Part shown: positions 4,249-53,188 of the stretch, one piece after another
Layout of the letters: each line of letters starts with the position of its first letter
Numbering within the stretch: position 1 is the first letter of the stretch
Source: an uncultured Planctomycetales bacterium
GTDB lineage: Bacteria; Planctomycetota; Phycisphaerae; UBA1845; PWPN01
Direction: 5' to 3'
NCBI GenBank assembly: GCA_964548565.1
Contig: CAZJTF010000002.1
Location: forward strand, 3,573 to 67,572
Length of the DNA stretch: 64,000 bases
Notes under the pieces: model-generated
What the model saw: only the letters and a program-made list of their open reading frames with translations
Database searches by the model: none
What the model was told of the DNA's origin: nothing
Made by a program: the position numbers and the translations under genes

Positions 4249-5064
4249 CTACGGCTCGATGAACTCCGGCCCATCCTGCTTGGCCGAGCGGGAACGCCCC
4301 GTGAGGAGCTTCAGAAGGGTGCGGCGGAGCAGCGTGAGCGGCCGGGAGAGCCGCCGGTGCAGCCGGATAGACCAGCCATGGCGATACGAGGCGGTAAACT
4401 CGTCCGCCGTGAGCGTATCCGGTCGATGGCGGCGCCGGTGCTTGAGCAGGTGGTACCGGTCGCCGTCCTGAAGCCTCCGAAGGATGAAATCACCGAGTTC
4501 CCGGGGAATCAGCCGCAGAAGCCCGTCTCGGCGCCCGCCCGGGCCCGGGTCCCACCGCCAGGAAATCTGGAAATCGATCAGGCTCGGCTGGCCATCGGCG
4601 TCTACGAGGATATTCTCCCGCTTCTCGAGATCGACGTACGCGATTCCTCGGTTGTGCAGCGCTTCAATGATGGCAGCCAACCGCGGGAAGAATGCGTCGT
4701 CCACCCACTCGTTGCGTTGGAGCGGATGACCTTCCACGAACGCGTGGGCAAAACCCGTCTCGCCCCACCGCCCCAGGCACTGCGGTACGCCCGGCAGATC
4801 CTGCACGGCTTCGTAGATCCGCCACTCGTGGTTCGCCAGGTACTTCCCCATCCAGCTCAGCGGGACCCCGAACAGCGGCGCCTGACGGCCGATCTTGAGG
4901 ATCACCCGCCCGGTCGGCCCTTCATACAGGCCCGTGGCTGCAAAGAAGTCGTGCTTGTACGTCCGGCGGTGCGCGTAATCGTGCCCGTTGAGGCGGATGC
5001 GCGACGGCATCTCCTCCCTTCCCAGGGCACGGAGCCACGAAAATCGGGGCGGCTTTTCGTTCAT
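4249..5064 (-). CDS. Protein-kinase-fold protein (Kdo/WaaP/RIO-like)
   Basis: The kinase catalytic loop and metal loop are visible: IAYVDLEKRENILVDADGQPSLIDFQIS (D-x-x-K-x-x-N then IDF). The track ORF extends to 5280 but would overlap the upstream peptidase gene. I prefer the start at MNEKPPRFSW (5064). Confidence 0.6.
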   Translation of the reverse strand: MNEKPPRFSWLRALGREEMPSRIRLNGHDYAHRRTYKHDFFAATGLYEGPTGRVILKIGRQAPLFGVPLSWMGKYLANHEWRIYEAVQDLPGVPQCLGRWGETGFAHAFVEGHPLQRNEWVDDAFFPRLAAIIEALHNRGIAYVDLEKRENILVDADGQPSLIDFQISWRWDPGPGGRRDGLLRLIPRELGDFILRRLQDGDRYHLLKHRRRHRPDTLTADEFTASYRHGWSIRLHRRLSRPLTLLRRTLLKLLTGRSRSAKQDGPEFIEP

Positions 5065-5176: not shown

Positions 5177-6724
5177 CTACTCGCCGGCGACCGGCACGAC
5201 CTGCGGCACTTCAACTGGATTGCCGTCCCCCTTCGCGGAGGCCCGCCGAATGACGGCCACCGCTCCCGGCTGGGCGGCATCTCCCTCGCCCCGCGCCGCC
5301 AGCAGCGTCGGAGACGGTGCGAACTCGGTCGCGATATCCCACGTAAGGCAGTAGTCCCACGCGCGATCGCCGGTCACCTCGATCACGTACCGTCCAGCCG
5401 GAAGACTGCGGAGGTACACGTGCTCCACGTTGTCAACCGGCGAGACGCTCGCGTCGATCGGAGCTCCCGTCGTAAAGCCGTTGGCACGGCAGAGCCGAAG
5501 AGTGAGGTTGGCCATGGACGGATTGAGGCGCAGCGGGTCACCGTCCGTGATCGTCATCCTGCGATGCCAGGTGAGCAGAAAGGACGCGGAGCTCCCCCGG
5601 CGGTTCTCAGGGATCTCGAAGTAGTAGCGCTGCGGCGCCGAAGCCTCCGCCCGCCCGTAATCCCAGCCGGTCACCGGCACATCGTCCTCGCCCGGTTCGT
5701 GCTCGCCGGCGACCAGGATGCGGTAGCTGTTGTCAACGTCGAGCTGTCCGGCACCGTAGCGATAATCCAGCGGAACGGTGCCATCGGTGCAGGGCGTCTC
5801 GAACCCGCGATGCCAGTCGGTCCACGCTTGCTTCGTCGCGCCGCCCATCAGCAGTGCCTTGGCAAGCATCGCACGCGCCGCCGGACGCTCCGCGGCTCGG
5901 ACACCCGCGAGGTGCCGTCCGTCCTCGATGCCCTCGATCAGGATGGACGCACAGGCGGCGACGACCGGCGTCGCCCAGCTCGTCGCGCTCAGCGGCGCAA
6001 CCAGGTCCGGCTTGATCCGCTCCCCGTCCAGTCGAGTCGGCCCGAAACTGGACTCGCCACTCGTCAGCCCAACCGCGATGATGTTGTAAGCGCTGCACAT
6101 CAGCTTGGGCATCGCGGTGCCCGTGCCATTCTTCACGCCGGCGGTGACAACCGCACCGTCACGCTGCACGACGTAGTCAATCCGTCGCAGCACGTCGAGG
6201 TCCACGGAGTCGACGCCGAACGACCCGATCCAGCTGTGATTCTGGACCGTCCGGACTTCGTGGAGCGGCTCGAGCGAGCTGTTGATGTTGAGGAAGCCCC
6301 CCTCGGCCCAGTCGTTCGCGTCGTACGAGGCGATCTGCCGCACGCCCGGGGTCACGCTGCTCGCCACCCCGCAGTAGTACTGGGCGACCGTGGTGGCGTG
6401 GTTCGACACGCCGCTCACACCGCTCAGGCGACTGATGGCCTTCCCGGCAAACTGCGGATCGCTCACGTCGGGCATGTAATCCCGGCTGGAATTCACGGCC
6501 ATCTCGACCTGCGAAATCGTGACGGTGCTGCCTGTCGGAAGTCGTCCGCCGAGCCGCTGCTGCAGACGCGTGTAGCCGATCTCCGCCCGCCAGTCGGCCC
6601 GGGTCGTGCCCGCCAGCGCAACGATGGCGATCAGCGAAACCGCAATCCGGGTGGTCTCGATACGGCGGGAGAGGCGTTGGCGCCGGGGGAAAGGACAGAC
6701 GCTGCTGAGGAAGTAAACACTCAA
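5177..6724 (-). CDS. Secreted subtilase-like (S8) peptidase homolog
   Basis: 515 aa with a signal/anchor segment (IAVSLIAIVALAGTTRA). S8-like motifs appear in D-H-N-S order: VTISQVEMAV (Asp position reads Glu), SNHATTVAQ (His), VQNHSWIGSF (Asn), SATSWATPVVAACASIL (Ser). A C-terminal beta-rich domain follows. Confidence 0.6.
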   Translation of the reverse strand: MSVYFLSSVCPFPRRQRLSRRIETTRIAVSLIAIVALAGTTRADWRAEIGYTRLQQRLGGRLPTGSTVTISQVEMAVNSSRDYMPDVSDPQFAGKAISRLSGVSGVSNHATTVAQYYCGVASSVTPGVRQIASYDANDWAEGGFLNINSSLEPLHEVRTVQNHSWIGSFGVDSVDLDVLRRIDYVVQRDGAVVTAGVKNGTGTAMPKLMCSAYNIIAVGLTSGESSFGPTRLDGERIKPDLVAPLSATSWATPVVAACASILIEGIEDGRHLAGVRAAERPAARAMLAKALLMGGATKQAWTDWHRGFETPCTDGTVPLDYRYGAGQLDVDNSYRILVAGEHEPGEDDVPVTGWDYGRAEASAPQRYYFEIPENRRGSSASFLLTWHRRMTITDGDPLRLNPSMANLTLRLCRANGFTTGAPIDASVSPVDNVEHVYLRSLPAGRYVIEVTGDRAWDYCLTWDIATEFAPSPTLLAARGEGDAAQPGAVAVIRRASAKGDGNPVEVPQVVPVAGE

Positions 6725-6989
6725 CTTTCCAGCATCCTACTGGAGGTAGCCCCACAGGTGTCTTACCTGGGTGCGCATCTGCGCAACGATCAGGGCGGCC
6801 GCAGTGACCCCCTGGCCCCGATCGTATTCATCGGATTTTAATCAACGCGGCTACGGCGTCAAAGGGGAATCTGCCCGAAGTGCCGATGGCAGCAGGAGAA
6901 CCGTCAATCCGCCGGATGGCATGTCCTGGCGGCTCGGCCCCCCGGAGGGGTGGCGGCGCCCCCCCTTTCTGTCGACGAGTCAGGCGACT

Positions 6990-7307
6990 TCAGCGTCGAT
7001 CCAGCAGCTTGCCCAGCAGGATCCCGAAGCCGAAGGCCACAAGCAGGCTCGTGACCGGGCGCTGCTCAATCTGCTCGTGGACGTTTTCGACCGTCTGGCG
7101 GCTCTTCTTTCCGGCAACACTGAACGCGTCCCGAAGATCACCGGCCCACTTCTCCGCATTCTCCGAGAGACGCTCGCGCAGGTTCGTGGCGCCGCTGCGC
7201 CCGCTGGAGATCAGTGACTCCAGAATATCCGCAACGCTGTTCCGCAGCTTGCCGAGGTCATCGCGGAGATCCTGGACCTCATCCGACAGTTCGAATCGTC
7301 GCGCCAT
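6990..7307 (-). CDS. DUF883 / ElaB-YqjD family tail-anchored protein
   Basis: 105 aa. A coiled N-terminal part (DLRDDLGKLRNSVADILESL...) is followed by a C-terminal TM anchor EQRPVTSLLVAFGFGILLGKLL, characteristic of the ElaB/YqjD/YgaM family. Confidence 0.7.
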   Translation of the reverse strand: MARRFELSDEVQDLRDDLGKLRNSVADILESLISSGRSGATNLRERLSENAEKWAGDLRDAFSVAGKKSRQTVENVHEQIEQRPVTSLLVAFGFGILLGKLLDRR

Positions 7308-7467
7308 GTGAAAAACCTCCGATCAGCTTGGTTAACGTAGATCATATGAGGCACTTGGCGTTTTTCTATCGGGCCTCGGAATTCACTGCTGCCTCCTCAT
7401 TGGAGGACGATGGCGAGGCGGCCCCGCCCCGCGTCGGGCACGAGAAGTTTCGCCGCCGAGCTGCGAC

Positions 7468-7497
7468 TTGGCCTCGGCAAAGCACGCGGTCTATACT
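7468..7497 (+). promoter_or_regulatory. Candidate sigma70-type promoter for the CsrA-REC gene
   Basis: TTGGCC (7468-7473), an 18-nt spacer, then TATACT (7492-7497), about 60 nt upstream of the ATG at 7556. Confidence 0.3.
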
Positions 7498-7555
7498 GTT
7501 GATGTGTCACTCCTCGTCTGTGCCGTTGTCCAAACGGGTTTCAAGGTGGTAAAAA

Positions 7556-8155
7556 ATGCTCGTGATTTCCCGATGCCTGAACAGCGCGGTGCGGATCGGC
7601 GAAAACGTCACCATCAAAGTGCTGCGGATTGGACAAAAACGCGTGACCCTCGGCGTGGATGCACCGCCCGAGGTCACGGTGCGACGCGACGAGGTGGTGG
7701 ACGCGGTACGCCCCTCAAACGGCAGTGCGGAACTGCCCGGCCTCGACCTTCGCGTACTCGTGGTTGAGGATACGCCGGTGCACGCCCTCCTGATCGAGCG
7801 CGTCCTGAGCCGGCGCGGCGTCAAGAACATCGTTCGCACCTCCTGCGGCGAGGATGCCATTCGTCTTCTCACCCTCGCGCGGGAGAGCAAGGCCCTCAAG
7901 CCCGACCTGATCCTGTTGGACCTGCAGCTCCCCGGCGTCTCCGGCCTCCAGGTGCTCGAAACGGTCAAATCGCACCCGGCCCTGCGATCCATCCCGGTCG
8001 TCGTGCTGAGCTGCTCGGATTCCGATGAGGAAGTCGCGCGGTGCATGGCCGCCGGCGCCAACGCCTTCGTGTCCAAATCGGAAAGTTACGACAACCTGAG
8101 GCAGGCAATCCTTCGTATCACTGATTTCTGGAGCCAGGTGCGAAAGGTCGGCTGA
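7556..8155 (+). CDS. CsrA-like RNA-binding domain fused to a CheY-like receiver domain
   Basis: The N-terminus MLVISRCLNSAVRIGENVTIKVLRIGQKRVTLGVDAPPEVTVRRDEV aligns residue-for-residue with E. coli CsrA [47 protein letters not shown]. The remainder is a complete receiver: LRVLVVEDT, phospho-acceptor context DLILLDLQLPG, VVVLSCS, AFVSKS. SD-like AAGGTGG lies 8 nt upstream. Confidence 0.8.
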   Translation: MLVISRCLNSAVRIGENVTIKVLRIGQKRVTLGVDAPPEVTVRRDEVVDAVRPSNGSAELPGLDLRVLVVEDTPVHALLIERVLSRRGVKNIVRTSCGEDAIRLLTLARESKALKPDLILLDLQLPGVSGLQVLETVKSHPALRSIPVVVLSCSDSDEEVARCMAAGANAFVSKSESYDNLRQAILRITDFWSQVRKVG

Positions 8156-8193
8156 ATGCCCCTGCTGAATTCGGAAGGCAAGGCCGATTTGCC

Positions 8194-8222
8194 TTGACAT
8201 TCCGATCGCTTTCCTTTAATTA
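8194..8222 (+). promoter_or_regulatory. Candidate promoter for the GGA-rich leader and CBM48 gene
   Basis: A perfect -35 TTGACA (8194-8199) is followed by an AT-rich -10 region, TTTAAT (8215-8220) or TAATTA (8217-8222), giving a spacer of 15-17 nt. This is an isolated AT-rich patch in GC-rich DNA. Confidence 0.35.
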
Positions 8223-8380
8223 GAACGTGCTGCATTACGCGGCGCCAACTCGCACGAAGCGAACCTCGATCGCAATCTTCCGCCGCATGGCGCACGAGAC
8301 CGCCTCGGCCGGATGAGTGATAAAAACAATCTCAACGCAGGTGACGTGGCCGACAGCCACGCGAGAGGTGATTCCTTACG

Positions 8381-8577
8381 GGAGCGGGAAAGAGGCCCGG
8401 ACGGACCGGGTCCGCAGACCGAGCGGCAGGCTGTCGACCGCGGAGCACCCAGTCGAGGAGGAGGGGCGTGTACGGACGCAGGGGAACGGAGTCCGTGTGG
8501 TGAACACACGGAAGGCGGCATCCAGAGGACCAGCAGGGATGACAGCCATCACGGAGGTGCAGGATGGTCGCACGGGA
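8381..8577 (+). promoter_or_regulatory. GGA-dense 5' leader (candidate CsrA-binding RNA) ending on the SD and start codon of the CBM48 gene
   Basis: I count 17 GGA trinucleotides on the + strand in 197 nt, versus 3 TCC. Many sit in ACGGA or CACGGA contexts. AGCAGGGAUGA (8533-8543) and GCAGGAUGG (8558-8566) resemble the CsrA SELEX core ARGGAUG, and the latter includes the ATG at 8564. GGAGG at 8553-8557 is the SD. There is an 8-bp hairpin TCCGTGTG/CACACGGA at 8492-8512. Confidence 0.55.
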
Positions 8578-8866
8578 TCTTGAAGGCGAAGTCGAATTCC
8601 GGCTCCATAACCCTTCCGCACGACAGGTCTACCTCGTCGGAGACTTCAACGGATGGCAGGAGTGCAGCCTGCCCATGACGCGTCAGCAGAGCGGCGAATG
8701 GGTCTGCCGCCTCCACCTCCCCGAGGGCGTCTACCAGTACAAGTACCTCGTCGACGGAGAGTGGTGCCTCGACAGTGACCCGGTCGGCATCGGCTGGGCC
8801 CCCTTCGGGTGCAACTCGGTCATGGTGATGCACACCGGTGACGTGCCGGCGTTTCCCGTCGGTTGA
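8564..8866 (+). CDS. Stand-alone CBM48 / AMPK-beta-type glycogen-binding domain protein
   Basis: The 100-aa product EVEFRLHNPSARQVYLVGDFNGWQECSLPMTRQQSGEWVCRLHLPEGVYQYKYLVDGEWCLDSDP matches the AMPK beta GBD pattern (VYLSGSFNNW...LPEGEHQYKFFVDGQW..DP). Confidence 0.8.
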   Translation: MVARDLEGEVEFRLHNPSARQVYLVGDFNGWQECSLPMTRQQSGEWVCRLHLPEGVYQYKYLVDGEWCLDSDPVGIGWAPFGCNSVMVMHTGDVPAFPVG

Positions 8867-8975
8867 ACTTGACACCGGCCGCCGCGTTCGGTTTCCTTGT
8901 CCCACGGACGCGTCGCGCGGATCGGCCGAGGGCCGCGACACGCCCGGTCGATGCCTGAGTCACAGGGATTCAGCC

Positions 8976-9006
8976 GCCGCCCGCACCGCGCGGGCGGCTT
9001 TGTTTT
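8976..9006 (+). terminator. Rho-independent terminator after the CBM48 gene
   Basis: A 9-bp GC stem GCCGCCCGC (8976-8984) / GCGGGCGGC (8990-8998) with a 5-nt loop is followed by TTTGTTTTG. Confidence 0.7.
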
Positions 9007-9027
9007 GCCCTCGCCCGGAACCACGCC

Positions 9028-9519
9028 ATGCCAGCACATGTCGGTGTCATAATGGGTTCGCGATCGGACTGGGAGACGATGCAGCACTGCGCCGCCACCC
9101 TGGAGGCGCTGGGCATCGGGTTCGAGGCCCGTGTGCTCTCTGCACACCGCACGCCCGACGCGGCCCTGGAATATGCCGCCACCGCCGAGAGTCGCGGGCT
9201 GCACGTGATCATCGCGGCCGCGGGAGGCGCAGCCCATCTGGCTGGCGTGATGGCCGCCAAGACCGCCCTGCCCGTCCTCGGCGTCCCCATGCAGTCGCAG
9301 AGCCTGCAGGGGCTCGACTCGCTGCTCTCCATGGTGCAGATGCCCGCGGGAATCCCGGTGGGAACGCTCGCCATCGGCAAAGCCGGCGCGATCAACGCCG
9401 CCCTCTTCGCGGCCGCGATTCTCGCGCGCCACGACGCGAACGTCCGCACCGCCCTCGAGCGGTATCGGTCGGATCAGACCAAGAAGGTGCTGGCGAGTTC
9501 GGACCCGCGCCAGGGCTGA
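9028..9519 (+). CDS. purE: N5-carboxyaminoimidazole ribonucleotide mutase
   Basis: 163 aa. [16 protein letters not shown]...VLSAHRTPD...[29 protein letters not shown]...[19 protein letters not shown] is the canonical PurE sequence pattern. Confidence 0.92.
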
Positions 9520-9529
9520 CCGCGCCCTG

Positions 9530-10513
9530 TCAGAACACCCGGCTCAGTTCCCCGCGTGCGCCGTTGAGGACACGGTCCCAGTCGAACGCCGGCCCCGGGT
9601 CGATCTTGCCGCGCGTAATGTGCCAGTGGCCGAGGAGCCCTGACCAGGCGTTCAGCTCTTCCTCGGTCATGACGTCGGCACGCACCCGCCCGTCGGCGTC
9701 GCGCGGGACATCCAGTTTCATCCTCGGGAAGACGCGTGTCAGCGCGGCGCACAGCCGGATCATCGCCGTGTACTGTTCGGGCGTGAAATCGTACTGCACC
9801 AGGTCATGGCCGTTGATGCGCCCGCGCACCACCTCCGGCCGGGCCGGTCTGCCCACGAACCCCGGCGTGCGGATGCCCCCGTCCCCCATCCACGCCGGCA
9901 GCGTGATGCACGGCCAGGCGAACGCGTCGAGGCTGTACCACTCATTGAGCGTCCGCATGTCCGGGTACGCCCCGATGTGTGCAATCTCGACGCCGATCGA
10001 GCGATCGTTGGCCGTGCCTGCATGCCACGCCCGCTCCTTGAGGTCGAGCGTCTGGTACAGCGTGCCGTCAATGTCCAGCATGAACTGCACGGACAGCCCG
10101 CGAACATCGTGCAGGATCTTGAAGCACTGCTGGGAGGTGCCGCAGACGTCGTAGTGAATCACGAACTGGTCCACCGCCTGCTGCAGGTTGGGGAGAGTCC
10201 AGCCGTCCTTCGCGACCGCCTGCTCGAGTTCCGGCGAAAGCTTCTTACGGACGCCGTAGCGGTTCGGGTCGTCCTTCGACACCGGCGCTTTCGGCATGAT
10301 CTGGTCCGACTCGAAATGTCGCCGGCAGCGATACGCGTCATAGCCCCCGGGATCCGTCCAGAGCACGACCGGCGTCCCCGTATGGAAAAGCTGGCCGGCC
10401 GCGACGATCTCGTCCCCTTTCCGCTCCACGCGATCACCCGGACGCCCGCATCCGGTGCAGGCGATGACCGCGCCGCAGACAAGCACTCCCCACGCCTGAA
10501 AGCCGCTCCGCAT
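9530..10513 (-). CDS. N-acetylmuramoyl-L-alanine amidase (Amidase_2/PGRP fold), secreted or lipoprotein
   Basis: 327 aa. The signal plus Cys reads WGVLVCGAVIACTGC. The core FVIHYDVCGTSQQCFKILHDVRGLSVQFMLDIDGTLYQTLDLKERAWHAGTANDRSIGVEIAHIG is AmpD/PGRP-like. Confidence 0.75.
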   Translation of the reverse strand: MRSGFQAWGVLVCGAVIACTGCGRPGDRVERKGDEIVAAGQLFHTGTPVVLWTDPGGYDAYRCRRHFESDQIMPKAPVSKDDPNRYGVRKKLSPELEQAVAKDGWTLPNLQQAVDQFVIHYDVCGTSQQCFKILHDVRGLSVQFMLDIDGTLYQTLDLKERAWHAGTANDRSIGVEIAHIGAYPDMRTLNEWYSLDAFAWPCITLPAWMGDGGIRTPGFVGRPARPEVVRGRINGHDLVQYDFTPEQYTAMIRLCAALTRVFPRMKLDVPRDADGRVRADVMTEEELNAWSGLLGHWHITRGKIDPGPAFDWDRVLNGARGELSRVF

Positions 10514-12257: not shown

Positions 12258-13900
12258 TCAGTTCGGACACTGCGGATGCTGGGCGGCGACGAACGGCACG
12301 TTCGGCCCGGTCGCGCATTCCAGGAAATCCGCGAAGTCCAGGCTGTTGACGACGTTGTCGGCGTTCAGGTCCGCACAGAAACACCCGGACGCAGGCGCGC
12401 CGGTCGGGTTGTAGCACGCCTGGAACGCGCCGAAGTCGTCCATGTCCACGTCGCCGTCGCGATCCGAATCGGCCGCCGGAGAACCGCAACCCTGCAGCAG
12501 CAGCCGGACTGTGATCGGCTGGCTGAGGTCAACCTGCGGGTTCTGATGTGGCATGTCCGGCGTGTTGCTGGCGTCGTTCGTCGTCAGGCGAACCCACCGC
12601 GCCGCCGCCAGGCTGTTGAACTGCCACTCGACCCGCAGCGACTTGCCCGCCCCGTCCGCAACGCCGGCATCGACCGCCGACACGTTTGGCTGGACCAGCA
12701 GGTACCCCGTCGTCGCCGATGCCCGCGGCTCGCGGAACATCGCCGGTTCATCCACCGTCAACTGGTCGAAATCGGCGATCAGCGTCGAGCCGTTCATGAC
12801 CGTGTCAATGTAGACCTTGTAACGCCCGGTGTTCGCCGTCGTCGGCGTGAACGCCAGGTGCTCGAGCACGCCGAACGACCCGTCGAGTGCCCCGTTGCCG
12901 TTCGAGTAGCTCAGGACCGGATCCGTACCGCCCCGGTTGGCCGCATGGAACGTGAACGTCTGCCAGCCGGCGCCCGGCGTCAGCAGTTTGCCGACCGGCG
13001 CACTTCCGCCGGAGGAGCCCGTCGCCCCCACCCACTCGATGGCCTGCCCCGTTCCCGGAGCGCCTGCATCCGCGCCGATCGGCCCCGCCAGGGACGTGTT
13101 CTCCCGGATCCCCAGCGTCACCCGCAAGGCATCGTTCCGCCCGGCACCCACAACCGGCCCGGTGAACGCCTTCGCGCCTTCAATAGCCGTCGTGCACGAG
13201 GACGTCGCGGGCTGATACGTCTGCGTCGCCACGATGGTGTCGCCCATCACGAGCGGCTCCGTCAGGAACACGGTCGCTTCGGGAGCCCCGCCCGGGTCGC
13301 CTGTGCCCAGCAGCGTCCAGGTGTCGGGCGCGTGCGTGTACTTGTAGACGGACACCAGCGTCGCCGCGGGGTTCTGGCTCACGCCGGTGACCCGCAGTTC
13401 CGTGGCGCCGGCCTCGACCGGACCCGGGATCGAAACCGCCTTCACATCCGACGGCAGGCACGGGCGCGGCCCGCGGACCAGCTTGATGTTGTCGATCAGC
13501 ATTCCGACGTACTTGGCGTTCGCCGCGCTCTTGCCGGCATCCCAGGTCCCGCAGTTCGTTGAGAACGCGATCAGCAGGTCATCGCCTGCGTTCGCCGTGA
13601 ACGTGTCCGTCAGAACCCGGATCGGCTGGCTGCTGTTGTCGAAGTAGCCGTCCTGGTCCGGCGTGAGCGGGCCTGTGTAGTTGCCGATCGGCGAAGCGAT
13701 TGCCGGCAGAGCGCCGGTGCTCGGCCGGTGAGCCCCGTTGACCACCACGCCGACCTGGTACGACCGGATGAAATCCTTGTCGTAAAGGTCGCCGCGCTCA
13801 TCCACCAGCATGTCTACCTGCAGGTGGTACTGGTTACCGATGGCTGGATTCGGATCCGCGGCGGGAATCACCTGCTCGAATTTGGCATACGCACCGTTAC
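12258..13900. repeat. DNA-level paralogous repeat (copy 1), 3' half of paralog A
   Basis: The 3' ends of A and B align at the nucleotide level over the dockerin and C-module, with long runs of identity such as ggctgttgaactgccactcgacccgcagcga versus ggctgttgaactgccattcgacccgcagcga. Protein similarity continues to about residue 520 from the C-terminus. Confidence 0.7.
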
Positions 13901-15491
13901 CCCAGCCGTGATCGGCAATGTCGAGGCAGTTGCTGCCCGCAAGCTGCGGCGCCGTGACCTCGCTGCCCGTCGAACCCGTGCGGAGGACTTCCGTGTAGGC
14001 GTTGCTCGCCACGTCGTACCACGTGCGATACGCCGTCCCGACGCCCGACTGCACGATTGCCACCGCAGTCTCGAAATCCTCGATGATGCCCGCCCCCTTC
14101 ACGGCCACACCGGAGCCGGGCGTGCACCCGTGCAGCCCGCGGCTGCCCTGCGTGGCCTTGAGGATCTGCCCGTTCACGAGCGCGGGAACGTTGACGACAG
14201 TGGTTGGAGAGCTGACGGTCGTGTTGTTCGTCCCGACCAGGACGTCGTCCGCATAAACCCGGACCTCGGTGGCGCCCGCGCTCACGCCCGTGACGCGCAC
14301 GGCCGTTTCACCCTCGGAAATCAGCCCCACGATCCGCACCGCCGCCATCTGGGCGCAGTCCCCGACCTTCAGCCCCGTCGTGGGAGCGCACCCGGCAAGT
14401 CCCCGGATCGTCTGGGTCGCGCCGATCACGTGCCCATCCTGGACGGCCGGCAGACCGGTCACCGTTACGCTCGTACTGCCCGGACCCGGCGGGACCGCGA
14501 ACGTCACCGTCTTCAACTGCGTGTTGGCCGTCACGTCCCAGACCGTCACCGCCTCCGCGCGAGTCGCGTCCACCCCCGTCACCACGACGGAGGTATCGCC
14601 GGCCAGCAGGACCGAGTTGGCTGCCTGCACGCTGACCGCCGGAACCTGATTGCAGCCGTCCACCTCGATGCCGAGGTAGTCGATGCAGCTGGTCGCACTG
14701 CCGACGGTCTGAGTCGCCGATACCATGTGCCCGCCAAGAGCGCTCAGGTTGACCGGGACGTCCTGCGATGCCGGAGTTGCCCCGGCGCCAGGGAGCGGGA
14801 AAGAGGTGAGCAGGGTGCTCACGTTGTTGAAGTTGTCGTAAATGTGGACGGCCGTCGCGTTCGGATCGAGCCCCGACACCGTCACCGTCGTGTCCGTGTG
14901 AAGCAGCGGGCTGGGAGCGGTGATCGTCGGATGCGCGAGATTGACGTCGCAGTCCGCCGAGACGAGCACCCATTTCACCGCGTCCAGGTAGAAGCTGCCG
15001 CTCAGGTCGTTGTTCAGGTTGTTGATTTCGACCGTGCCGGCGTCGATGCCCGCATTGAAGGCGAATCGCCCCAGCGACACCCACGTGTTGACGCTCGCGG
15101 TCTGATCGATCGCCACGTCCGTGCTGCCGTCGCGGTGGGTCACCGTGTGGCGGATGTTGGCTCGCCGGTTCGCGCCGGAGCCCCAGGTGGTGAAGACCTC
15201 ATAGGTGCCGGCGACGCTCAGGTCGGCCTTGAAAAAGCCCCGCTTGGTGCCCACGACGGAGCGGTACGTACTCGCGTAGCGTGAGCCGCCGACCGTGGCG
15301 ATGGGGGTGCAGGCCTCAGCCGTGCTCTTGGCCCCACTGTTAGCTAGCGCCGGCGTTTCGGAGTACTTGTTGAAGTTCTTGCCGCCGCTCCGGCTCTCCA
15401 CGATGTAGTCCGCAGCCAGCGCCGGGCCGGCCGACGCCAGCACCGTCACCGCCAGCACTGCCGCGATAAAACCTCTGTGACGGGTTATCAT
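12258..15491 (-). CDS. Secreted multidomain surface protein, paralog A (golvesin-like N-domain, Ig-like repeats, conserved bipartite C-module, dockerin-like tail)
   Basis: 1077 aa with signal peptide MITRHRGFIAAVLAVTVLASAGPALA. The N-domain reads YIVESRSGGKNFNKYS...GSRYAST...TYEVFTTWGS. About four ~90-aa repeats each end in ATQT..G...C. The C-module reads LRVTLGIRENTSLAGPIGADAG...GVLEHLAFTP...YKVYIDTV then MFREPRASATTG...LRVEWQFNSLAAARWVRLTT...VDLSQPITVRLLL. The tail is DSDRDGDVDMDDFGAFQAC...DLNADNVVNSLDFADFLEC. Confidence 0.85.
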   Translation of the reverse strand: MITRHRGFIAAVLAVTVLASAGPALAADYIVESRSGGKNFNKYSETPALANSGAKSTAEACTPIATVGGSRYASTYRSVVGTKRGFFKADLSVAGTYEVFTTWGSGANRRANIRHTVTHRDGSTDVAIDQTASVNTWVSLGRFAFNAGIDAGTVEINNLNNDLSGSFYLDAVKWVLVSADCDVNLAHPTITAPSPLLHTDTTVTVSGLDPNATAVHIYDNFNNVSTLLTSFPLPGAGATPASQDVPVNLSALGGHMVSATQTVGSATSCIDYLGIEVDGCNQVPAVSVQAANSVLLAGDTSVVVTGVDATRAEAVTVWDVTANTQLKTVTFAVPPGPGSTSVTVTGLPAVQDGHVIGATQTIRGLAGCAPTTGLKVGDCAQMAAVRIVGLISEGETAVRVTGVSAGATEVRVYADDVLVGTNNTTVSSPTTVVNVPALVNGQILKATQGSRGLHGCTPGSGVAVKGAGIIEDFETAVAIVQSGVGTAYRTWYDVASNAYTEVLRTGSTGSEVTAPQLAGSNCLDIADHGWGNGAYAKFEQVIPAADPNPAIGNQYHLQVDMLVDERGDLYDKDFIRSYQVGVVVNGAHRPSTGALPAIASPIGNYTGPLTPDQDGYFDNSSQPIRVLTDTFTANAGDDLLIAFSTNCGTWDAGKSAANAKYVGMLIDNIKLVRGPRPCLPSDVKAVSIPGPVEAGATELRVTGVSQNPAATLVSVYKYTHAPDTWTLLGTGDPGGAPEATVFLTEPLVMGDTIVATQTYQPATSSCTTAIEGAKAFTGPVVGAGRNDALRVTLGIRENTSLAGPIGADAGAPGTGQAIEWVGATGSSGGSAPVGKLLTPGAGWQTFTFHAANRGGTDPVLSYSNGNGALDGSFGVLEHLAFTPTTANTGRYKVYIDTVMNGSTLIADFDQLTVDEPAMFREPRASATTGYLLVQPNVSAVDAGVADGAGKSLRVEWQFNSLAAARWVRLTTNDASNTPDMPHQNPQVDLSQPITVRLLLQGCGSPAADSDRDGDVDMDDFGAFQACYNPTGAPASGCFCADLNADNVVNSLDFADFLECATGPNVPFVAAQHPQCPN

Positions 15492-15929: not shown

Positions 15930-17560
15930 TCACTCCGTGCACTGCGGGTGCTCCGCCGGAACGAACGGCACATTCGGGCCGGTCGCGCACTCGAGGAACT
16001 CCGCGAAGTCCTGCAGGTTCACGACGTTATCGGAGTTCAGGTCCGAGCAGAAGCACGCCGATGAGGGCGCCCCGGACGGCTTGAAACACGCCTGGAACTC
16101 GCCGAAGTCGTCCATATCGACGTCGCCATCGAGGTCAAAGTCGGCCGACGGCAGGCCGCAGCCCACCAGCAGCAGCCGGACCGAAACCGGCTGGCTCAGG
16201 TCGATCTGCGGGTTCGAGTGCGGCATGTCCGCGCTGTTGGCATCGTCGAACGTCGTCAACCGCAACCACCGGTTCGCCGCGAGGCTGTTGAACTGCCATT
16301 CGACCCGCAGCGACTGCCCCGCGCCGTCCGCGACGCCGGTGTCAACGGCAGAAACGTTCGGCTGGGTCAGCAGGAACGGTGCCGTTGTGCCCGAGTGGCT
16401 CGGGACCCGGAACAGCGCCACGCTGTCGGCCTCCAGCCCCTCGAAATTGGCAACAACCGTCGCGCCGTTCATCACATTGTCGATGTAGACCTTGTAGCGA
16501 CCGGTATTCTCGGCCGTCGGCGTGAACGCCAGGTGCTCGAGAATCCCGAACGCCCCGTTGAGCGTCGTGTCCCCGGCGTTGAAGCTCAGCACCGGGTCCG
16601 TACCGCCCCTTCCTTCCGCCCAGAAGGTCACCGTCTGCCACTCGCCGCTCGGAGCGATCAGCTTGCCGACCGGCGCATTGGCGCCGCTCGATCCCGTCGC
16701 GCCGACCCACTGGATCGTGCTCGTCGCGATGCCGCCGTCCGCACCGATGGGACCGGTCAGCGCCGTGTTCTCACGCACGCCGAGCGTCACCCGCAGCGGG
16801 CTGTTCTTACCGAGCCCCACAATCGGGCCCGTGAAGTGCTTCTCGCCTTCCATCTCTGCCGTGCACTCCGCGACGGCCGGCATGTACGTCTGCGTCGCGA
16901 CGACTGTCCACCCCGTCTCCAGGGCCGTCGTCAGCGGTACACTCACATCCGGAGCCCCGCCGCGAGCCACCGTGCCCAGCAGCGTCCAGGTATCCGGCGA
17001 CGGTGTGTACCGGTACACCGAAACGAGGGATGCCGCCGGGTTCTGGCTGACGCCGCTGACCTGCAGTTGTGTCGCCCCTGCCTCGACTGGTCCGGGGATC
17101 GAGACAGACTTGACGTCCGACGCCAGGCATGGCCGGGCGCCGGAATTCAGCTTGATGTTGTCAATCTTCATGCCCGGGAAGGGAGAGGTCGGCGCCCCGC
17201 CGCCCTGTGTGTAAGTCCCCACGTTCGTCGCGAACGCGATGAGCAGGTTGTCGCCGGCGTTCGCCGTGAACGACGACGTGAGCACCACCACCGCCTGCGT
17301 GGCCGTCGCACCGTCAAGGTCCACCGTGAGCGGGCCGGTGTAGTTCCCGATGAGCGAACAGGCAGCGATCTGACCGCCGGGCGTACGATGAGCCCCGTTG
17401 ACGATCACGCCTGCCTGGAAGTTGCTGAGCCAATCCAGATCTCCTGCGCCGACCTCATCGATGAGCATGTCAATCTGCAGGTGGTAGGTCCCAGTAGACG
17501 GGATCACCTGCTCGTAGACAGCGTACATGCCGTTGCCGAAACCGTTGTCGGCAAAACGGA
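15930..17560. repeat. DNA-level paralogous repeat (copy 2), 3' half of paralog B
   Basis: See copy 1 (12258-13900). This is a tandem, same-strand duplication separated by a 438-bp intergenic region. Confidence 0.7.
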
Positions 17561-19190
17561 TGCATTGACTGCCGAACAACGTGCTGATCGTCGGAGTTGT
17601 CGCCATGAATCCGGAATCGCCCGCGTTGTACCACACCCGGTTGGTCGCACCGCTGGCAGGCGGATTCCCGGTGATCTTGGGATACACGCCGTCGGTCAGG
17701 TTCGTCGTCAGGTCTCCGAAGTCCTCAATGAGATTCGCCGCCATGACGCGCCTTCCGGCAGTCGGGAGGCAACCCGGGATACGAATGGTCTGTGTTGCCT
17801 TGATGATCTGCCCCTCCACCAACGCCGGAACGGTCACGAGGGTCGTCCCTGCTGTTGCCGGCGCGTTGGTGACGATCGGAGCATCATTAGCGTAGACGGT
17901 CACCCCCGTGGCACTCGCACTGACCCCGGAGACACGTACGACCGTCCGGCCGGCATCGACGAGACCGACGACGCTCACCGCAGGCACCTGGCCGCAGGCT
18001 CCGACAACCGCACCGTCCGTCGGCGGGACGGTACAGGGCGCCAATCCGCGGATCTCCTGGATTGCGGCCACGGTTGCGTCCGCAGTCAGTGAGTTCGGGG
18101 CGACGGATACGTTCACCGTGCTCGCCCCGCCGGGCGAATTGTTCGTGCCGATCAGCGTCCCGTTCTGGTACACCTTCACCGCGGTAGCCTGCGGATCGAC
18201 GCCGGAGACCGGAACACTGGTATCGCCGGCCACCAGGACCCCGCCGATTGTCACGCCTCCAATCTGGTTACAGTTGTTGGTCTGCGGCCCATCCTTCAAT
18301 GCACACCCTTCTGCCCCCCCGATCGTCTGCGTGGCATTGATGTTTGCGTTCGCGGGCAGTGACGTCGTGGTGGCGATCACGGTCGTGGCGCCGCCTGTCG
18401 GAGTCCCCGTCGGAGGGTTCGACACGTTCAAGCCGTTGGCGTAAACCTTCACCACGGTTGCCGCGGGATCGACGCCGGTCACCGTCACGGTCGTGTCCCC
18501 CGTCAGCACCGGCGTCCGCACGGAAACCGTGGGAACACCCGTACAGACCGCGTTGGGGTTACGGAAGAGGACCGCGTCCGCCATCAATCGATTCGTGCCC
18601 GCCGGCTCCATGACCGCGTTGGTCGCGACGACCGTGTAGGTGACTCCCGCGTTCATCGGGTAGGCCATCGTGCCGATCTGGTGCCATTCATGCTGCCCGA
18701 CGTTCCTCTGGTTGAAATTGGACGTGACGCTCCCGCCCTCGTAATTGAGGGTGTACTGAACGCTGGAGTCGCCGGTGCTTGATTGCCCCCATGTAGCATA
18801 CACCTCGTATGTTCCGGTCTCGACGGGGGTAAAGCTGAAGGTGGCGCTGGACGTGGTCTGGGTCGAGAACTTGCCGCCGATTCCGGTGGTCAGGTCGTCG
18901 TCTGTGCGATTCGGACATGCAGGAACGCTGGAGCACGTAATCCGCGTGGGGAACCCCGCGACATTGGGGTTGCTGTGGGCACTGGTATAGAACCATGTGC
19001 CCGACCGCGTCGCATTCGTCAGGGTGTGATTGCCATACAGTGTGTTCGCCGGAGGCGGATTGGCGTTCGCACTGTTGTCATCACCCATCTCCACCACATA
19101 GTCGACGACAACGCCCAGAGCAGTGCCTGACGTGGCGAGCACGGCCAGCACCGCCATCCCGGCCGCCAGATACGTTTTGCTGGTGTTCAT
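15930..19190 (-). CDS. Secreted multidomain surface protein, paralog B
   Basis: 1086 aa with signal MNTSKTYLAAGMAVLAVLATSGTALG. The architecture matches A. The C-module reads LRVTLGVRENTALTGPIGADGG...GILEHLAFTP...YKVYIDNV, LFRVPSHSGTT...LRVEWQFNSLAANRWLRLTT...IDLSQPVSVRLLL. The tail is DFDLDGDVDMDDFGEFQAC...DLNSDNVVNLQDFAEFLEC. Confidence 0.85.
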   Translation of the reverse strand: MNTSKTYLAAGMAVLAVLATSGTALGVVVDYVVEMGDDNSANANPPPANTLYGNHTLTNATRSGTWFYTSAHSNPNVAGFPTRITCSSVPACPNRTDDDLTTGIGGKFSTQTTSSATFSFTPVETGTYEVYATWGQSSTGDSSVQYTLNYEGGSVTSNFNQRNVGQHEWHQIGTMAYPMNAGVTYTVVATNAVMEPAGTNRLMADAVLFRNPNAVCTGVPTVSVRTPVLTGDTTVTVTGVDPAATVVKVYANGLNVSNPPTGTPTGGATTVIATTTSLPANANINATQTIGGAEGCALKDGPQTNNCNQIGGVTIGGVLVAGDTSVPVSGVDPQATAVKVYQNGTLIGTNNSPGGASTVNVSVAPNSLTADATVAAIQEIRGLAPCTVPPTDGAVVGACGQVPAVSVVGLVDAGRTVVRVSGVSASATGVTVYANDAPIVTNAPATAGTTLVTVPALVEGQIIKATQTIRIPGCLPTAGRRVMAANLIEDFGDLTTNLTDGVYPKITGNPPASGATNRVWYNAGDSGFMATTPTISTLFGSQCIRFADNGFGNGMYAVYEQVIPSTGTYHLQIDMLIDEVGAGDLDWLSNFQAGVIVNGAHRTPGGQIAACSLIGNYTGPLTVDLDGATATQAVVVLTSSFTANAGDNLLIAFATNVGTYTQGGGAPTSPFPGMKIDNIKLNSGARPCLASDVKSVSIPGPVEAGATQLQVSGVSQNPAASLVSVYRYTPSPDTWTLLGTVARGGAPDVSVPLTTALETGWTVVATQTYMPAVAECTAEMEGEKHFTGPIVGLGKNSPLRVTLGVRENTALTGPIGADGGIATSTIQWVGATGSSGANAPVGKLIAPSGEWQTVTFWAEGRGGTDPVLSFNAGDTTLNGAFGILEHLAFTPTAENTGRYKVYIDNVMNGATVVANFEGLEADSVALFRVPSHSGTTAPFLLTQPNVSAVDTGVADGAGQSLRVEWQFNSLAANRWLRLTTFDDANSADMPHSNPQIDLSQPVSVRLLLVGCGLPSADFDLDGDVDMDDFGEFQACFKPSGAPSSACFCSDLNSDNVVNLQDFAEFLECATGPNVPFVPAEHPQCTE

Positions 19191-33378: not shown

Positions 33379-36300
33379 TCAGTTCGTGCACTCCGGGCTT
33401 GCGGTCGTGTTCGCCCCGCTGAAGCAGTTCATGAAGAGCGCGAAATCGGTGTCATCCACGTCCGAGTCAGAATCGAGGTGAGCCCGCGCACACTTCGGGT
33501 TGTTTTGGTCCGCCACCCCCGAGAAGCAGAGCTGCAGGTAGCCGAAGTCCGCCTGGTCGACGTCCCCGTCCCCGTCGAAATCCGCCCGCGGCGGACACGC
33601 CTGCTCGACGCCGTCAATGTAGACCGTCAACGGGCCGGCCGCCTCAACCGGGCTCAGTGCCAGATGTTCGAGCACGCCCCGACCGGTGGGCGTCCAGAGC
33701 ACGCCGTCGCCTGTGTACGCTTTCGCCGCCGGCGCGGGCAGGAACGTGATCGTCTGCCACGTTCCCGGCTGCGCGGTCACCAGCAGGCCCTGCGGAGCCC
33801 CGTCGACCACGCTGTCGGCACCCACCCACTCGATCGTGCCCGTGGTCCCGCCGTCCGCGCCGATCGGCACGTCGACGTTCGTCTCGCGGACGCCGAGAGC
33901 CACGCGCAGCGAACCGCTGTCCAGCCGCAACCGCAGCCGGACCGGCCGATGCAGGTCGATCGCCGGATTCGCCACGCCTGGCGTATCCGCCGTCGTCAGC
34001 CGCAGCCAGCGCCCCGGCGCCGTATCCGCCCACTGCCACTGGACCTTGCAGACTTGGCTGCCGTCGTACGCCGCCACCTCGCTGGTCACGGCGGCGAGAT
34101 TCGGAGATTCAAGCAGGTGCTGCTGCGTCGCTGTCGAGAACCGCGGCTCCCGAAACAACACCGCTGCACCGTCCGGCTGCCCCTCGAAGTCGGCGATCGG
34201 CGACACGATGCACCGCGCGCTCAGCAGGAAAGCCATAGCCCGGGCCATGATGTCGTTGCGCACCGCCGGCGAGCCGATCGTCTCGAACGGCAGCGCCAGC
34301 ATGACCACGCGGTACCCGCCGGAGTCGTACTGAATGCCTGCGCCCATCCCACCGCCGTAGCTCAGGATCTGCACCGCACCTGCACGCGGCGCGATCCGGT
34401 CCGGCGCGAAGGCGACATACGGCGCGCCCGCCTGCGTGCTGAAACTGAAGGCCGGTACATCCTGCATGATCCCCCCGGTGCCCGACACGGTGAATGTGGC
34501 CGCATCATCAGCGACCCAGTCGGCGCGAAGAATGTTCTCGTAGAACGTCCGCCCGGCGTTCAGGCTGTCGAGTTCGTAGCCGATGTCCGTGCCGCTCACG
34601 AACAGCCCCCCGCCGCCGGCCAGCCAGTTCGTCAGCAGCGACTGCTCCGTCGCATCGAATGTCCTGTCCGTTTCCGATTCGCGCCCGAGGATCCACACCA
34701 CCGCCTGGTAGGCCCGCAACGGCACCTGCCCCGCGACGATCGCCTCGTTCGAGCACGAGTCGAAGCTGACACCCGCCGCGCCGACCGCCGACGCGTGCTG
34801 CACGATGTAATCGAACGAGTTCACCACCCGCGGGATCGTCCGCTCGATCGTGCCGGCCGGGATCAGGTCGAGAAGGTCCTGCTTGCGGTCCACACGGTCG
34901 TAGCCGTTCACGATCAGCACCTGCGCCGGCCCGCTCGACGGAACCCGCACCGCCAACGTCTCCGACGGCATGGACTCGCCGCCCGCGTTGCAGGCGGCCA
35001 CCCGCAGGTAGGTCGTCTCGCCTGCCGGGATGTCGGTCAGGGTTGTACTCAGGTTGTTGCCGACGTCGACCCCCTGGCCAAAGCCGTAACCGTTGCTGGA
35101 GCGGTAGATCTTATAGCTGGTGGCGAAATCTCCACTGGCCGGGCTCGACGGTCGCGACGGACCTGCCTGCCAGGACACGACGACGCCGGCTCCGGCCTGG
35201 TACCGCGCCTCCACCCGCTCCGGCGGGTCCGGCAGGAACACGGTGGGCACCTGCGTCCCCGGGAAGATCGTCGGATCCGACAGAAACTGCACGATCCCCT
35301 GCACCGTGGAGCGTGCGATCGCGTCCCGCACCTTCAGGTCGCGCATCAGCGCCGCGTCCTGCATGTTGTCGTGGAAGGCCACCTCGAGAAGCGCCGCGTC
35401 GAACTCGTTCGAGTTGTTGGCCGTGCTGATCGCCCCGTATGCGAAGTTCTCCCGGAAGTAGGTGTTGGGCTCGCGCTCGCCCCACGGGTACTCGAACCGG
35501 TCGTCGATGGCCAGCATGTCCGCTTCGAGTTTCTCTCCGAGGATCCTCGCGTACTGAATCTGGTTCGTCGTCGCCCGGATGTCGTTGTACACGCCGACCA
35601 CGCCGCGCCCGTCCGCCGCGTTCGAGTGAAACTCGATGTAGACGCGCCGCCACCGGTCGTTATTGACGTCCGTGCGATTCATCTCGCGTGCCCAGCGGGC
35701 CGCCGTCCCCACGTTGTCATCGGTGTCCGTGTCGGCGGAGTCCCAGATGCTCGACGGCAGCCCCTCCGCATTGATGCCCGCCTCGCTCTCGGCCCAATAG
35801 CGCTGGGCCTCTTCATCCCGCCCGTATCCGCTCACCGTGTTCAGGTTGCCGCCGCGCACGCTCCCCATGCCGTTGCCGAAGCGGATCGCGTCCGCCACGA
35901 CCGTGCTGATCGTCGACGCCTGGTTGGAGATCTCGACGTAACCGCTCGTGCCGGCCTCGAAATGGAAATTCCCCAGCCAGATCCAGCCTTTGCCCACCAC
36001 CTGGTGATCGATCCGCACCTCCGCCGTTCCGCCGCTGTGCCGGATGCGGTAGAGCTGCTTCACGCGGTCCGTGTTGTCGCGCGTCCAGCAGTAGACAGGG
36101 TAGAAGTCCGCCGCCGGGATGTTCGGCGTGTAGCGCGCCGTGGCCGTTTCGGTCAGGCTCGATGTCGTGTAACGATAGCGCACGCCGCTGCCGGTGACGC
36201 CGTTCTCGTAGTACTCGGGCGCGTCCGAACTGTTGCTCCAGGCGCCCGTCCACGTCACGCCCGGATCGTCGTTGTCCAACACGATTTCCCGGTCCTGGTA

Positions 36301-52406: not shown

Positions 52407-52479
52407 GTGGAGGTCCGGACAGCGAGCCCGGATCCTGACAAGCGCCGCCGGGCCTGTCGCGGCGGCTGGAAAGGATACC

Positions 52480-53103
52480 ATGCAACATCCAGACGATATC
52501 CTGCGGACGGTGAACCAGCAGGCCCCGCCCTACCAGCGGTACCGGGAGATGTCGATCGAGGACATGCTCCTGGAGAACCGCATCATCTTCCTGGCGGGAC
52601 CGATCTCGGACCGGACGGCCAGCATCGTGATCATGCGGCTGCTGTACCTGCAGTCGATCAAGCGGGACCAGCCGATCAACCTCTACATCAACTCGCCGGG
52701 CGGGCTCGTGGACCAGACGCTGGCGATCTACGACACGATGCAGTTCCTGGGCTGCGAGGTGGCGACGTACTGCATCGGGCAGGCCTCGAGCGGGGCCGCG
52801 ATCATCCTGGCGGCGGGGACCAAGGGGCAGCGGTACGCGCTCCCGAACGCCAAGGTGATGCTGCACCAGCCTTACAGCGGGATCACCGGACAGGCCGAGG
52901 ATATCCGCATCCAGGCCGAGGAAGTCCTGAAGGACAAGAAGCTGCTGAACGACATCCTCGCCAAGCACACGGGCCAGGACCCGGAGAAGATCGCGCGGGA
53001 GATCGAGCGCGATCGCTACATGAACGCCCAGGAGGCGCTGGCATACGGGCTGGTGGACGAGATCCTGGTGGATACGGACAAGGATAAGAAGAAGAAAAAG
53101 TAA
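52480..53103 (+). CDS. clpP: ATP-dependent Clp protease proteolytic subunit (copy 1)
   Basis: [13 protein letters not shown]...[25 protein letters not shown]...[15 protein letters not shown]...MLHQP...[21 protein letters not shown]. It ends in a lysine-rich tail DKDKKKKK. Confidence 0.9.
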
Positions 53104-53188
53104 GACAGGCGGAAAAGCGCGGAAACTGGAAGTTTCGCACAACCTACGGCGGATGCCGGCAATGCACCGGCAGGAAGGCCGGGCAGGA

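Follow-up and report, generated by a model that had tools for sequence, protein, structure and literature searches.

We describe a gene in a 64,000-nucleotide (nt) stretch of DNA from an uncultured Planctomycetales bacterium (contig CAZJTF010000002.1; hereafter, the window, with 65.7% G+C) whose product joins a CsrA-type RNA-binding domain to a phospho-receiver domain. Judging from its sequence, the product of this gene (7556 to 8155, forward strand) is a bona fide response regulator with two domains, belonging to the CsrA-output class, and the interpretation with the best support is that a phosphorelay would be wired through it directly to a CsrA-type translational regulator. This interpretation is strengthened because kinases and further receivers adjoin the gene in homologous loci. 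Overall, we consider it probable, with some reservation, that the protein is a response regulator in which phosphorylation controls binding to GGA-containing RNA. The CsrA-receiver architecture was catalogued two decades ago and is not itself a discovery; what is new here is that the family is linked with kinases and a paralogous receiver, the identity of its receiver as Rcp1-type, a recurrent CBM48 neighbor, and a candidate RNA.

The gene starts with ATG and encodes 199 amino acids (aa) plus a stop codon, the protein beginning with MLVISR. A ribosome-binding site (AAGGTGG) lies 8 nt 5' of the start codon, and a candidate sigma-70-like promoter, which is a consensus match alone, occupies positions 7468 to 7497 of the forward strand (TTGGCC, an 18-nt spacer, and TATACT); the promoter consensus scan returned 2 sites versus 0.3 expected in shuffles. 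An earlier note on this DNA, made by eye from the sequence, had proposed the two domains, and the hmmscan analysis bore this out, with both matches exceeding the Pfam thresholds: CsrA (PF02599) covers residues 1 to 51 at 55.5 bits (cut-off 27, E = 5.7e-15; model positions 1 to 51 of 53), and Response_reg (PF00072) covers residues 67 to 185 at 78.8 bits (cut-off 30.2, E = 4.3e-22). The RNA-binding ANTAR domain (PF03861) was absent among the Pfam matches of the protein at E ≤ 1. With its 199 aa and its C-terminal receiver, the protein is not a free-standing CsrA of ~60 to 75 aa. Its CsrA domain was missed at E ≤ 10 when E. coli CsrA was used as a tblastn query against the window, and it was detected by hidden Markov models and by phmmer.

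The CsrA-type domain (7556 to 7708, forward strand; residues 1 to 51) was delimited by Pfam and by gap-free alignment to solved structures. The closest PDB sequence match of this part is Bacillus subtilis CsrA (1t3o), and residues 1 to 53 align without a gap to 1t3o, 1y00, and 2jpp, which extends the ~47 gap-free residues counted in the earlier note; chain D of the Geobacillus FliW-CsrA complex (5dmb) is also among the matches. From mutagenesis and RsmE-RNA structures, the RNA-contact set on strands 1 and 5 comprises, in E. coli numbering, L2, L4, R6, R7, V40, V42, R44, and I47. In an alignment of 41 family members, R6 is found in 40 of 40, R44 in 37 of 41, E46 in 38 of 41, and L2 in 36 of 41, while position 4 (I, L, or V), V40, and V42 remain hydrophobic, and G15, G33, and P37 are near-invariant. 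In the window protein, R44 (codon 7685 to 7687) sits in the sequence V-R-R-D-E. The RNA-contact residues of strands 1 and 5 are thus retained, with the exception of R7. An AlphaFold2 (AF2) model of the monomer (mean predicted local distance difference test [pLDDT] of 87 and predicted TM-score of 0.67 for the whole protein) places strands at residues 11 to 14, 18 to 25, and 30 to 35 and a helix at residues 45 to 49, with pLDDT values of 83 to 91 in the CsrA part. Strands 1 and 5 are unassigned in this monomer, as would be expected if they pair across a dimer.

The receiver (7748 to 8152, forward strand; residues 65 to 199) has its phospho-acceptor at D122 (codon 7919 to 7921). All of the motifs that had been named from the window sequence are present and conserved across the family: besides R44, these are E71 and D72 (VVED; each in 40 of 41 members), D122 (LLDLQLP; 39), S/T152 (VVLSCS; 39), and K174 (FVSKS; 40). 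The catalytic set is completed by F/Y171 (40 of 41), which lies three residues N-terminal of the Lys, as does Y106 in CheY. In addition, W192 is found in 40 of 41 members as part of a C-terminal F-W motif common to the family. The AF2 model of this part shows the alternating (beta-alpha)x5 arrangement, with block-mean pLDDT values of 76 to 97, mostly >88.

Both sequence and fold place this receiver with the regulators of phytochromes. A search of the PDB with the family profile gave 3heb, 5ic5, RcpA (1k68), Rcp1 (1i3c/1jlk), 6xvu, and RcpB (1k66) as the top sequence matches (E = 3e-33 to 7e-22), and Foldseek returned 1i3c, 6xvu, and 1k68 as the top folds, with a target-normalized TM-score of ~0.85. 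Several family members have been named "Rcp1" by the Joint Genome Institute. All 41 members have a histidine, H76 (codon 7781 to 7783), four residues past the acidic pair (VEDxxxH), and its equivalent is also found in the adjoining stand-alone receivers described below and in 3heb; H76 marks the receiver subfamily.

Between the two domains lies a variable linker (7697 to 7747, forward strand; approximately residues 48 to 64), defined by conservation and by the AF2 model. It measures ~16 residues in the window protein and 12 to 23 aa across the family, and residues 49 to 58 have pLDDT values <50, consistent with disorder. The mean majority-residue frequency among the 41 members is 0.65 for the CsrA part and 0.64 for the receiver, compared with 0.24 for the linker. 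Equal constraint on the two domains, together with a freely varying linker, is what a functional two-domain protein would be expected to display, rather than an assembly join.

The architecture is not confined to the window. A search of 5.8 billion proteins yielded 56 clusters (at 90% identity) that have both Pfam domains in the same order, with lengths of 192 to 229 aa and identities to the query ranging from 96% down to ~39%. When 1.84 billion representatives (50% identity) were searched with the family profile, at least ~42 clusters with proteins of ~200 aa matched it over its whole length, and five of these were checked with Pfam; the number is a lower bound, as the top of the list was diluted by multi-receiver hybrid kinases. 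The family is therefore small but diverse. The few labeled members come from metagenome-assembled genomes (MAGs) of Phycisphaerales/Phycisphaerae in the Planctomycetota. Variants were also seen, namely P0121 (399 aa), which has a CsrA-REC-REC arrangement, and P0163, P0207, and P0240 (225 to 231 aa), which are long-linker forms with ~45 residues between the domains. A pattern scan of genome contigs, in which generic receiver motifs were back-translated, recovered a single true member (L008, in a Phycisphaerae MAG); two other candidates that had seemed full-length were rejected, L029 being a receiver protein of the ordinary kind and L082 a hybrid kinase. The corresponding scan of metagenome contigs gave no family contexts, with 80 of 80 loci matching the receiver part alone.

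The genomic contexts of the family were analyzed in 13 distinct homologous loci. A kinase of the PAS-HisKA-HATPase type lies upstream of, adjoining, and on the same strand as the CsrA-receiver gene in 5 of the 13, namely L088/L089 (where the CsrA-receiver homologue is 83% identical to the window protein), L091 (50%), L004 (41%), L094 (in which the kinase has the form REC-HisKA-HATPase), and L096 (where it is fragmented). A stand-alone Rcp1-type receiver adjoins the gene in 5 of the 13 (L088, L091, L094, L092, and L177), so that a kinase and/or a stand-alone receiver is found next to the gene in 7. The kinase cores of L088, L004, and L094 share 35 to 43% mutual identity and an ASHDLRxPL H-box, and that of L091 is more distant (26 to 35%). 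The stand-alone receivers of L088, L091, L094, and L177 are 34 to 49% identical to one another and 32 to 44% identical to the fused receiver, and the one in L092 is more divergent. PAS domains are present in the precomputed Pfam listings of the neighboring kinases, and no phytochrome (PHY) domain appears in those listings. Given that a kinase or receiver adjoins the gene in 7 of 13 loci, the family would be a two-component output, and its pathway would often fork, with a single-domain receiver on one branch and the CsrA-fused one on the other.

The copy in the window is an orphan. Pfam scans of its ~38 gene calls found no histidine kinase, FliW, or flagellar families; a phmmer search of all six-frame window ORFs (open reading frames) with four of the kinases matched only the receiver itself; and tblastn revealed no second CsrA or receiver gene. 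The earlier note's remark that the vicinity lacks kinase, FliW, and flagellar genes accordingly holds for the 64-kb window, but for the family it does not, given the kinases at 5 of the 13 loci. One homologue, P0004, which is the 83% identical protein of L088 and L089, lies in a cluster (L088, 965 to 4471) with a kinase, a stand-alone receiver, and a 95-aa membrane protein, and its assembly drew on the two samples that also yielded the window protein (SRR12234145 and SRR8750958). Either P0004 is the gene of a sister strain, or the genome of the window has it as a paralogue, in which case its cluster might be the source of the kinase.

Downstream of the CsrA-receiver gene, after a 408-nt intergenic region, the window encodes a 100-aa protein that consists of a stand-alone CBM48/AMPK-type glycogen-binding module (8564 to 8866, forward strand; Pfam AMPK1_CBM, 54.8 bits, and CBM_48, 45.8 bits). 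This neighbor is syntenic in 4 of the 13 loci: it lies directly downstream in the window, in L181 (6896 to 7198), and in L177 (3767 to 4066), and in L091 (4705 to 5007, reverse strand) it is found ~3 kb upstream, in the opposite orientation. The CsrA-receiver homologues at L181, L177, and L091 are 81%, 78%, and 50% identical to the window protein, and the CBM48 orthologues are 41 to 70% identical to that of the window. That a "carbon storage regulator" domain is encoded beside a glycogen-binding protein hints at a possible connection. CBM48 leaders are long at all of these loci, from ~220 to >500 nt, with ~330 nt in the window. A possible promoter for the window leader (8194 to 8222, forward strand; TTGACA followed by the AT-rich TTTAATTA) was read by eye and was not flagged by the consensus scan; a CTTGAC box occupies the same position in the three orthologous intergenic regions of the window, L181, and L177.

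The 3' part of the window leader (8377 to 8577, forward strand) is a candidate binding target for the regulator, with 16 GGA triplets in 200 nt. No other stretch of the 64 kb is as dense in GGA on either strand (mean of 4.06 and standard deviation of 2.13; ~5.6 standard deviations above the mean), and the region is also the window maximum for A-N-GGA; the remaining GGA-rich spots (44362, 48693, and 52977) all lie within coding genes. Moreover, three CANGGANG sites fall within 51 nt (at 8507, 8534, and 8550), the last of which overlaps the Shine-Dalgarno GGAGG of the CBM48 gene. As CANGGANG has 52 matches in the 128 kb of both strands, ~0.01 such triplets of sites would be expected by chance, according to a rough Poisson estimate. 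The GGA triplets of the leader are also unpaired more often than the average base is (0.59 versus 0.42).

We also considered whether 8377 to 8577 might instead be a sponge small RNA (sRNA) of the CsrB/RsmY/RsmZ type. This candidate was rejected: Rfam gave no match at E ≤ 1 across positions 6500 to 9500, the terminator scan found no terminator-like site between the CsrA-receiver and CBM48 genes, and the last GGA lies in the Shine-Dalgarno sequence. A hairpin with a T-run that resembles an intrinsic terminator (8976 to 9008, forward strand) comes after the CBM48 gene. No terminator precedes the CBM48 start codon, and the region looks like the leader of an mRNA, not like a sponge RNA of its own. 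A GGA-rich leader was likewise rejected as a feature of the family, since neither its density nor its sequence is conserved among the orthologues. For this reason, we regard 8377 to 8577 as the best candidate for a target RNA in this genome, and not as a defining feature of the system.

How might such a protein work? Solved CsrA proteins are obligate interleaved homodimers with two RNA-binding edges, each made from strand 1 and strand 5', and phosphorylation of a receiver remodels its alpha4-beta5-alpha5 face, often driving dimerization. By the same principles, the N-terminal module would form an interleaved homodimer with two GGA-binding surfaces, each composed of strand 1 from one chain and strand 5 from the other. 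A tether of ~16 residues would attach each receiver where strand 5 and the short helix end, beside the RNA-binding edge; in Bacillus-type systems, this is also the end of CsrA on which FliW acts. A PAS-HisKA kinase would phosphorylate D122, thereby altering the packing or dimerization of the receivers via their alpha4-beta5-alpha5 faces, and this change would expose or occlude the RNA-binding surfaces. Kinase activity would in this way set GGA binding at or near ribosome-binding sites, resulting in translational repression or activation. We guess that phosphorylation would turn RNA binding on rather than off, in keeping with most response regulators. Given that no kinase lies in the 64 kb, the kinase for the window copy would be encoded elsewhere in the genome. 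The most likely local target would be the downstream CBM48 mRNA, whose ~330-nt leader contains 15 to 16 GGA triplets, one of them in the Shine-Dalgarno sequence. In its most specific form, the proposal is a third mode of CsrA control, next to sponge RNAs and the protein antagonists FliW and CesT, in which a kinase phosphorylates a receiver of the Rcp1 type tethered in cis, toggling GGA binding and gating CBM48 translation through the multi-GGA leader; we put this forward tentatively, as an idea that may well be wrong in some of its parts.

Three other explanations have to be weighed against a phosphorylation-controlled RNA binder. The simplest of them, that a frameshift, a mis-assembly, or a gene-calling error has joined a small csrA to a receiver gene, has in our estimation a negligible chance of being correct. 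The identical 199-aa protein occurs on three contigs from three different sequencing runs, i.e., the same ORF was recovered in three independent assemblies; domain order and approximate length are shared by all 56 clusters; GC3 (G+C at third codon positions) is 0.80 and uniform over a single ORF; and the junction contains neither a stop codon nor an alternative start. Nothing was found in favor of an artefact, the nearest thing being P0061 (in L007), whose probable indel falls within the CsrA part and not at the junction. In L007 (~9944 to 10001), the P0061 call begins at an internal GTG, an in-frame upstream ATG encodes MLVLSR, and IQIGPNIKV is found in another frame, which suggests an indel error in the 2.4-Mb contig rather than a truncated CsrA domain. 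The artefact explanation, which the earlier note had raised as a risk, has thus already been refuted in practice, and an interrupted ORF is very unlikely.

The other two explanations accept the fusion and differ over what the domains do, and they draw on several observations that weigh against the interpretation that we favor. Position 7, which in E. coli CsrA is an RNA-contact residue (R7) according to mutagenesis, is Cys in the window protein and variable in the family. The NCBIfam equivalog models NF002469 (cut-off 73) and TIGR00202 (cut-off 70.1) matched over positions 1 to 55/57 alone, at 50.8 bits, which is below both cut-offs; with the Pfam threshold passed, this indicates a CsrA domain and not a CsrA equivalog. 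The leader is strongly enriched in GGA in the window but modestly so in L181 (9 versus 5.3 expected) and not at all in L177 and L091, and the window leader folds no better than its shuffles (z = -1.4). No GGA enrichment that could point to autoregulation was seen upstream of the CsrA-receiver genes, and the 64-kb window lacks both a kinase and another receiver. A CsrA-like module that has lost RNA binding could serve solely as a constitutive dimerization scaffold, leaving the receiver to act through protein-protein interactions in the manner of the single-domain phytochrome regulators. Such a role would suit the fact that Rcp1-type receivers are normally single-domain dimers, and it would account for the lack of conservation at R7, the missed equivalog score, and the lack of a consistently conserved GGA-rich target. 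We nevertheless hold it to be unlikely, as the surface residues R6, R44, and E46, for which a scaffold has no need, are kept in 37 to 40 of 41 members despite divergence to ~39% identity, constraint on the CsrA domain equals that on the receiver, and the window leader has a statistically unusual cluster of CsrA-consensus sites. Alternatively, the CsrA module might bind RNA constitutively, with the receiver acting as a pseudo-receiver or a phosphate sink that, for example, drains the pathway of the stand-alone receiver. At several loci, one kinase gene is indeed followed by genes for both a stand-alone and a fused receiver that belong to the same subfamily, a layout typical of branched or sink arrangements, and the window copy is an orphan. 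However, all catalytic and switch residues are kept, among them the two (S/T152 and F/Y171) through which phosphorylation is coupled to the alpha4-beta5-alpha5 face, and the short linker (12 to 23 aa) throughout the family holds the receiver near the RNA-binding edge; we give this alternative a low probability. Phosphorylation-controlled binding of GGA-containing RNA is the explanation that we retain.

Comparison with known systems clarifies where the protein stands. To our knowledge, the characterized CsrA/Rsm regulators are all controlled indirectly. Two-component systems such as BarA-UvrY and GacS-GacA drive the transcription of sponge sRNAs that sequester canonical CsrA, and the partner proteins FliW and CesT control it by binding. 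The window protein shares with canonical CsrA, RsmA, and RsmE (1y00, 2jpp, and 1t3o) the gap-free residues 1 to 53, the hydrophobic strand pattern, and G15, G33, P37, R6, R44, and E46. Those entries, in contrast, are free-standing proteins of 61 to 95 aa, whereas the window protein combines CsrA with a covalent receiver; its CsrA C-terminal helix is cut to ~5 residues (45 to 49 in the AF2 model) and runs into the linker and receiver, and its R7 is replaced by Cys. FliW, the partner of CsrA in the 5dmb complex, offers a likeness in terms of control, being a protein that acts on CsrA at or near the C-terminal region and not by RNA mimicry. The receiver of the window protein is tethered at precisely this end. 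However, FliW regulates in trans and responds to flagellin levels, whereas the regulator of the window protein is in cis and would respond to phosphorylation; linked fliW and flagellar genes, as expected for a FliW-controlled CsrA, were not among the Pfam matches in the window. On the receiver side, Rcp1, RcpA, RcpB, and the bacteriophytochrome regulators (1i3c, 1k68, 1k66, and 6xvu, the last from Deinococcus), along with 3heb, are the closest relatives by both sequence and fold. The Rcp1-type regulators are single-domain proteins, whereas the window receiver has an N-terminal CsrA module.

Galperin 2006 (J Bacteriol 188:4169), as cited in PMC2222644, names CsrA alongside ANTAR among the RNA-binding outputs that response regulators can have. 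That listing, in the form conveyed by the citing paper, is a census of domain architectures, and the class that it defines has the same two Pfam domains in one polypeptide as the window protein, which belongs to it. Source databases already tag the family proteins with both domains. Searches of the full-text literature turned up no study on the function, structure, or genomic context of CsrA-receiver proteins. A 2026 survey of >20,000 CsrA homologues, which reported that Planctomycetota are rich in CsrA, does not use the term "response regulator" and mentions no receiver domain or domain fusions. A 2025 review lists E. coli CsrA as an "orphan RR" (response regulator), but that protein has no receiver domain, and the entry adds nothing to the present case. 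A parallel in principle comes from ANTAR response regulators (AmiR, EutV, and PdtaR), in which a receiver controls an RNA-binding output and the kinase signal acts on RNA after transcription initiation (PMC12471899; PMC2222644). The two output domains are unrelated, as ANTAR is a helical fold and CsrA is a beta-sandwich dimer. The receiver is N-terminal in ANTAR regulators and C-terminal in the window protein, and ANTAR acts by antitermination on dual hairpins, while the CsrA type acts on GGA/Shine-Dalgarno sites.

The remaining neighbors in the window have less bearing on the regulator. The local gene order is a 515-aa gene and a 105-aa gene (both reverse), the CsrA-receiver and CBM48 genes (both forward), the terminator-like hairpin, and purE. 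The 105-aa protein (6990 to 7307, reverse strand), encoded divergently from the CsrA-receiver gene, is coiled in its N-terminal part and ends in a hydrophobic anchor, and by eye it resembles tail-anchored stress proteins of the ElaB/YqjD type; Pfam returned sub-threshold YtxH and Apolipoprotein matches alone. Its orthologues occupy the same position in L177 (38% identity) and L181 (30%). The 515-aa protein (5177 to 6724, reverse strand) has no Pfam match and has a 50% identical orthologue in L181. A possible relation to the S8 peptidase that lies beside the L004 kinase, suggested by a subtilase-like "SATSWATP" noticed by eye, was rejected, as there was neither a BLAST match at 1e-3 nor a Pfam match. 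Approximately 2.5 kb upstream of the CsrA-receiver gene, a 271-aa protein (4249 to 5064, reverse strand) has a sub-threshold Pkinase match (23.6 bits versus 31.7) and could be an atypical Ser/Thr kinase-like protein. Farther downstream are genes for three Golvesin_C proteins of ~1,100 to 1,200 aa (12258 to 15491, 15930 to 19190, and 33379 to 37041, all reverse), a 2,058-aa protein with TSP3, Big_5, and fn3 repeats (43184 to 49360, forward strand) that contains the GGA-rich spots at ~44362 and 48693, and, as ordinary housekeeping content, trigger factor followed by two tandem ClpP genes (50862 to 53827, forward strand). The window also encodes DUF1559/N_methyl and PEP-CTERM proteins, a content in keeping with Planctomycetota.

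The idea of a directly phosphorylated CsrA has been made testable by the candidate kinases (of the L088, L091, L004, and L094 types), the paralogous receiver, the candidate CBM48 target, and the RNA at 8377 to 8577. If it is true, a CsrA set by phosphorylation would shorten the chain from two-component systems to CsrA to a single protein, and the family would constitute the second RNA-binding output class in two-component signaling, after ANTAR. It would also represent a new mode of control for a much-studied regulator and would provide a one-step pathway from kinase to translation for carbon storage.

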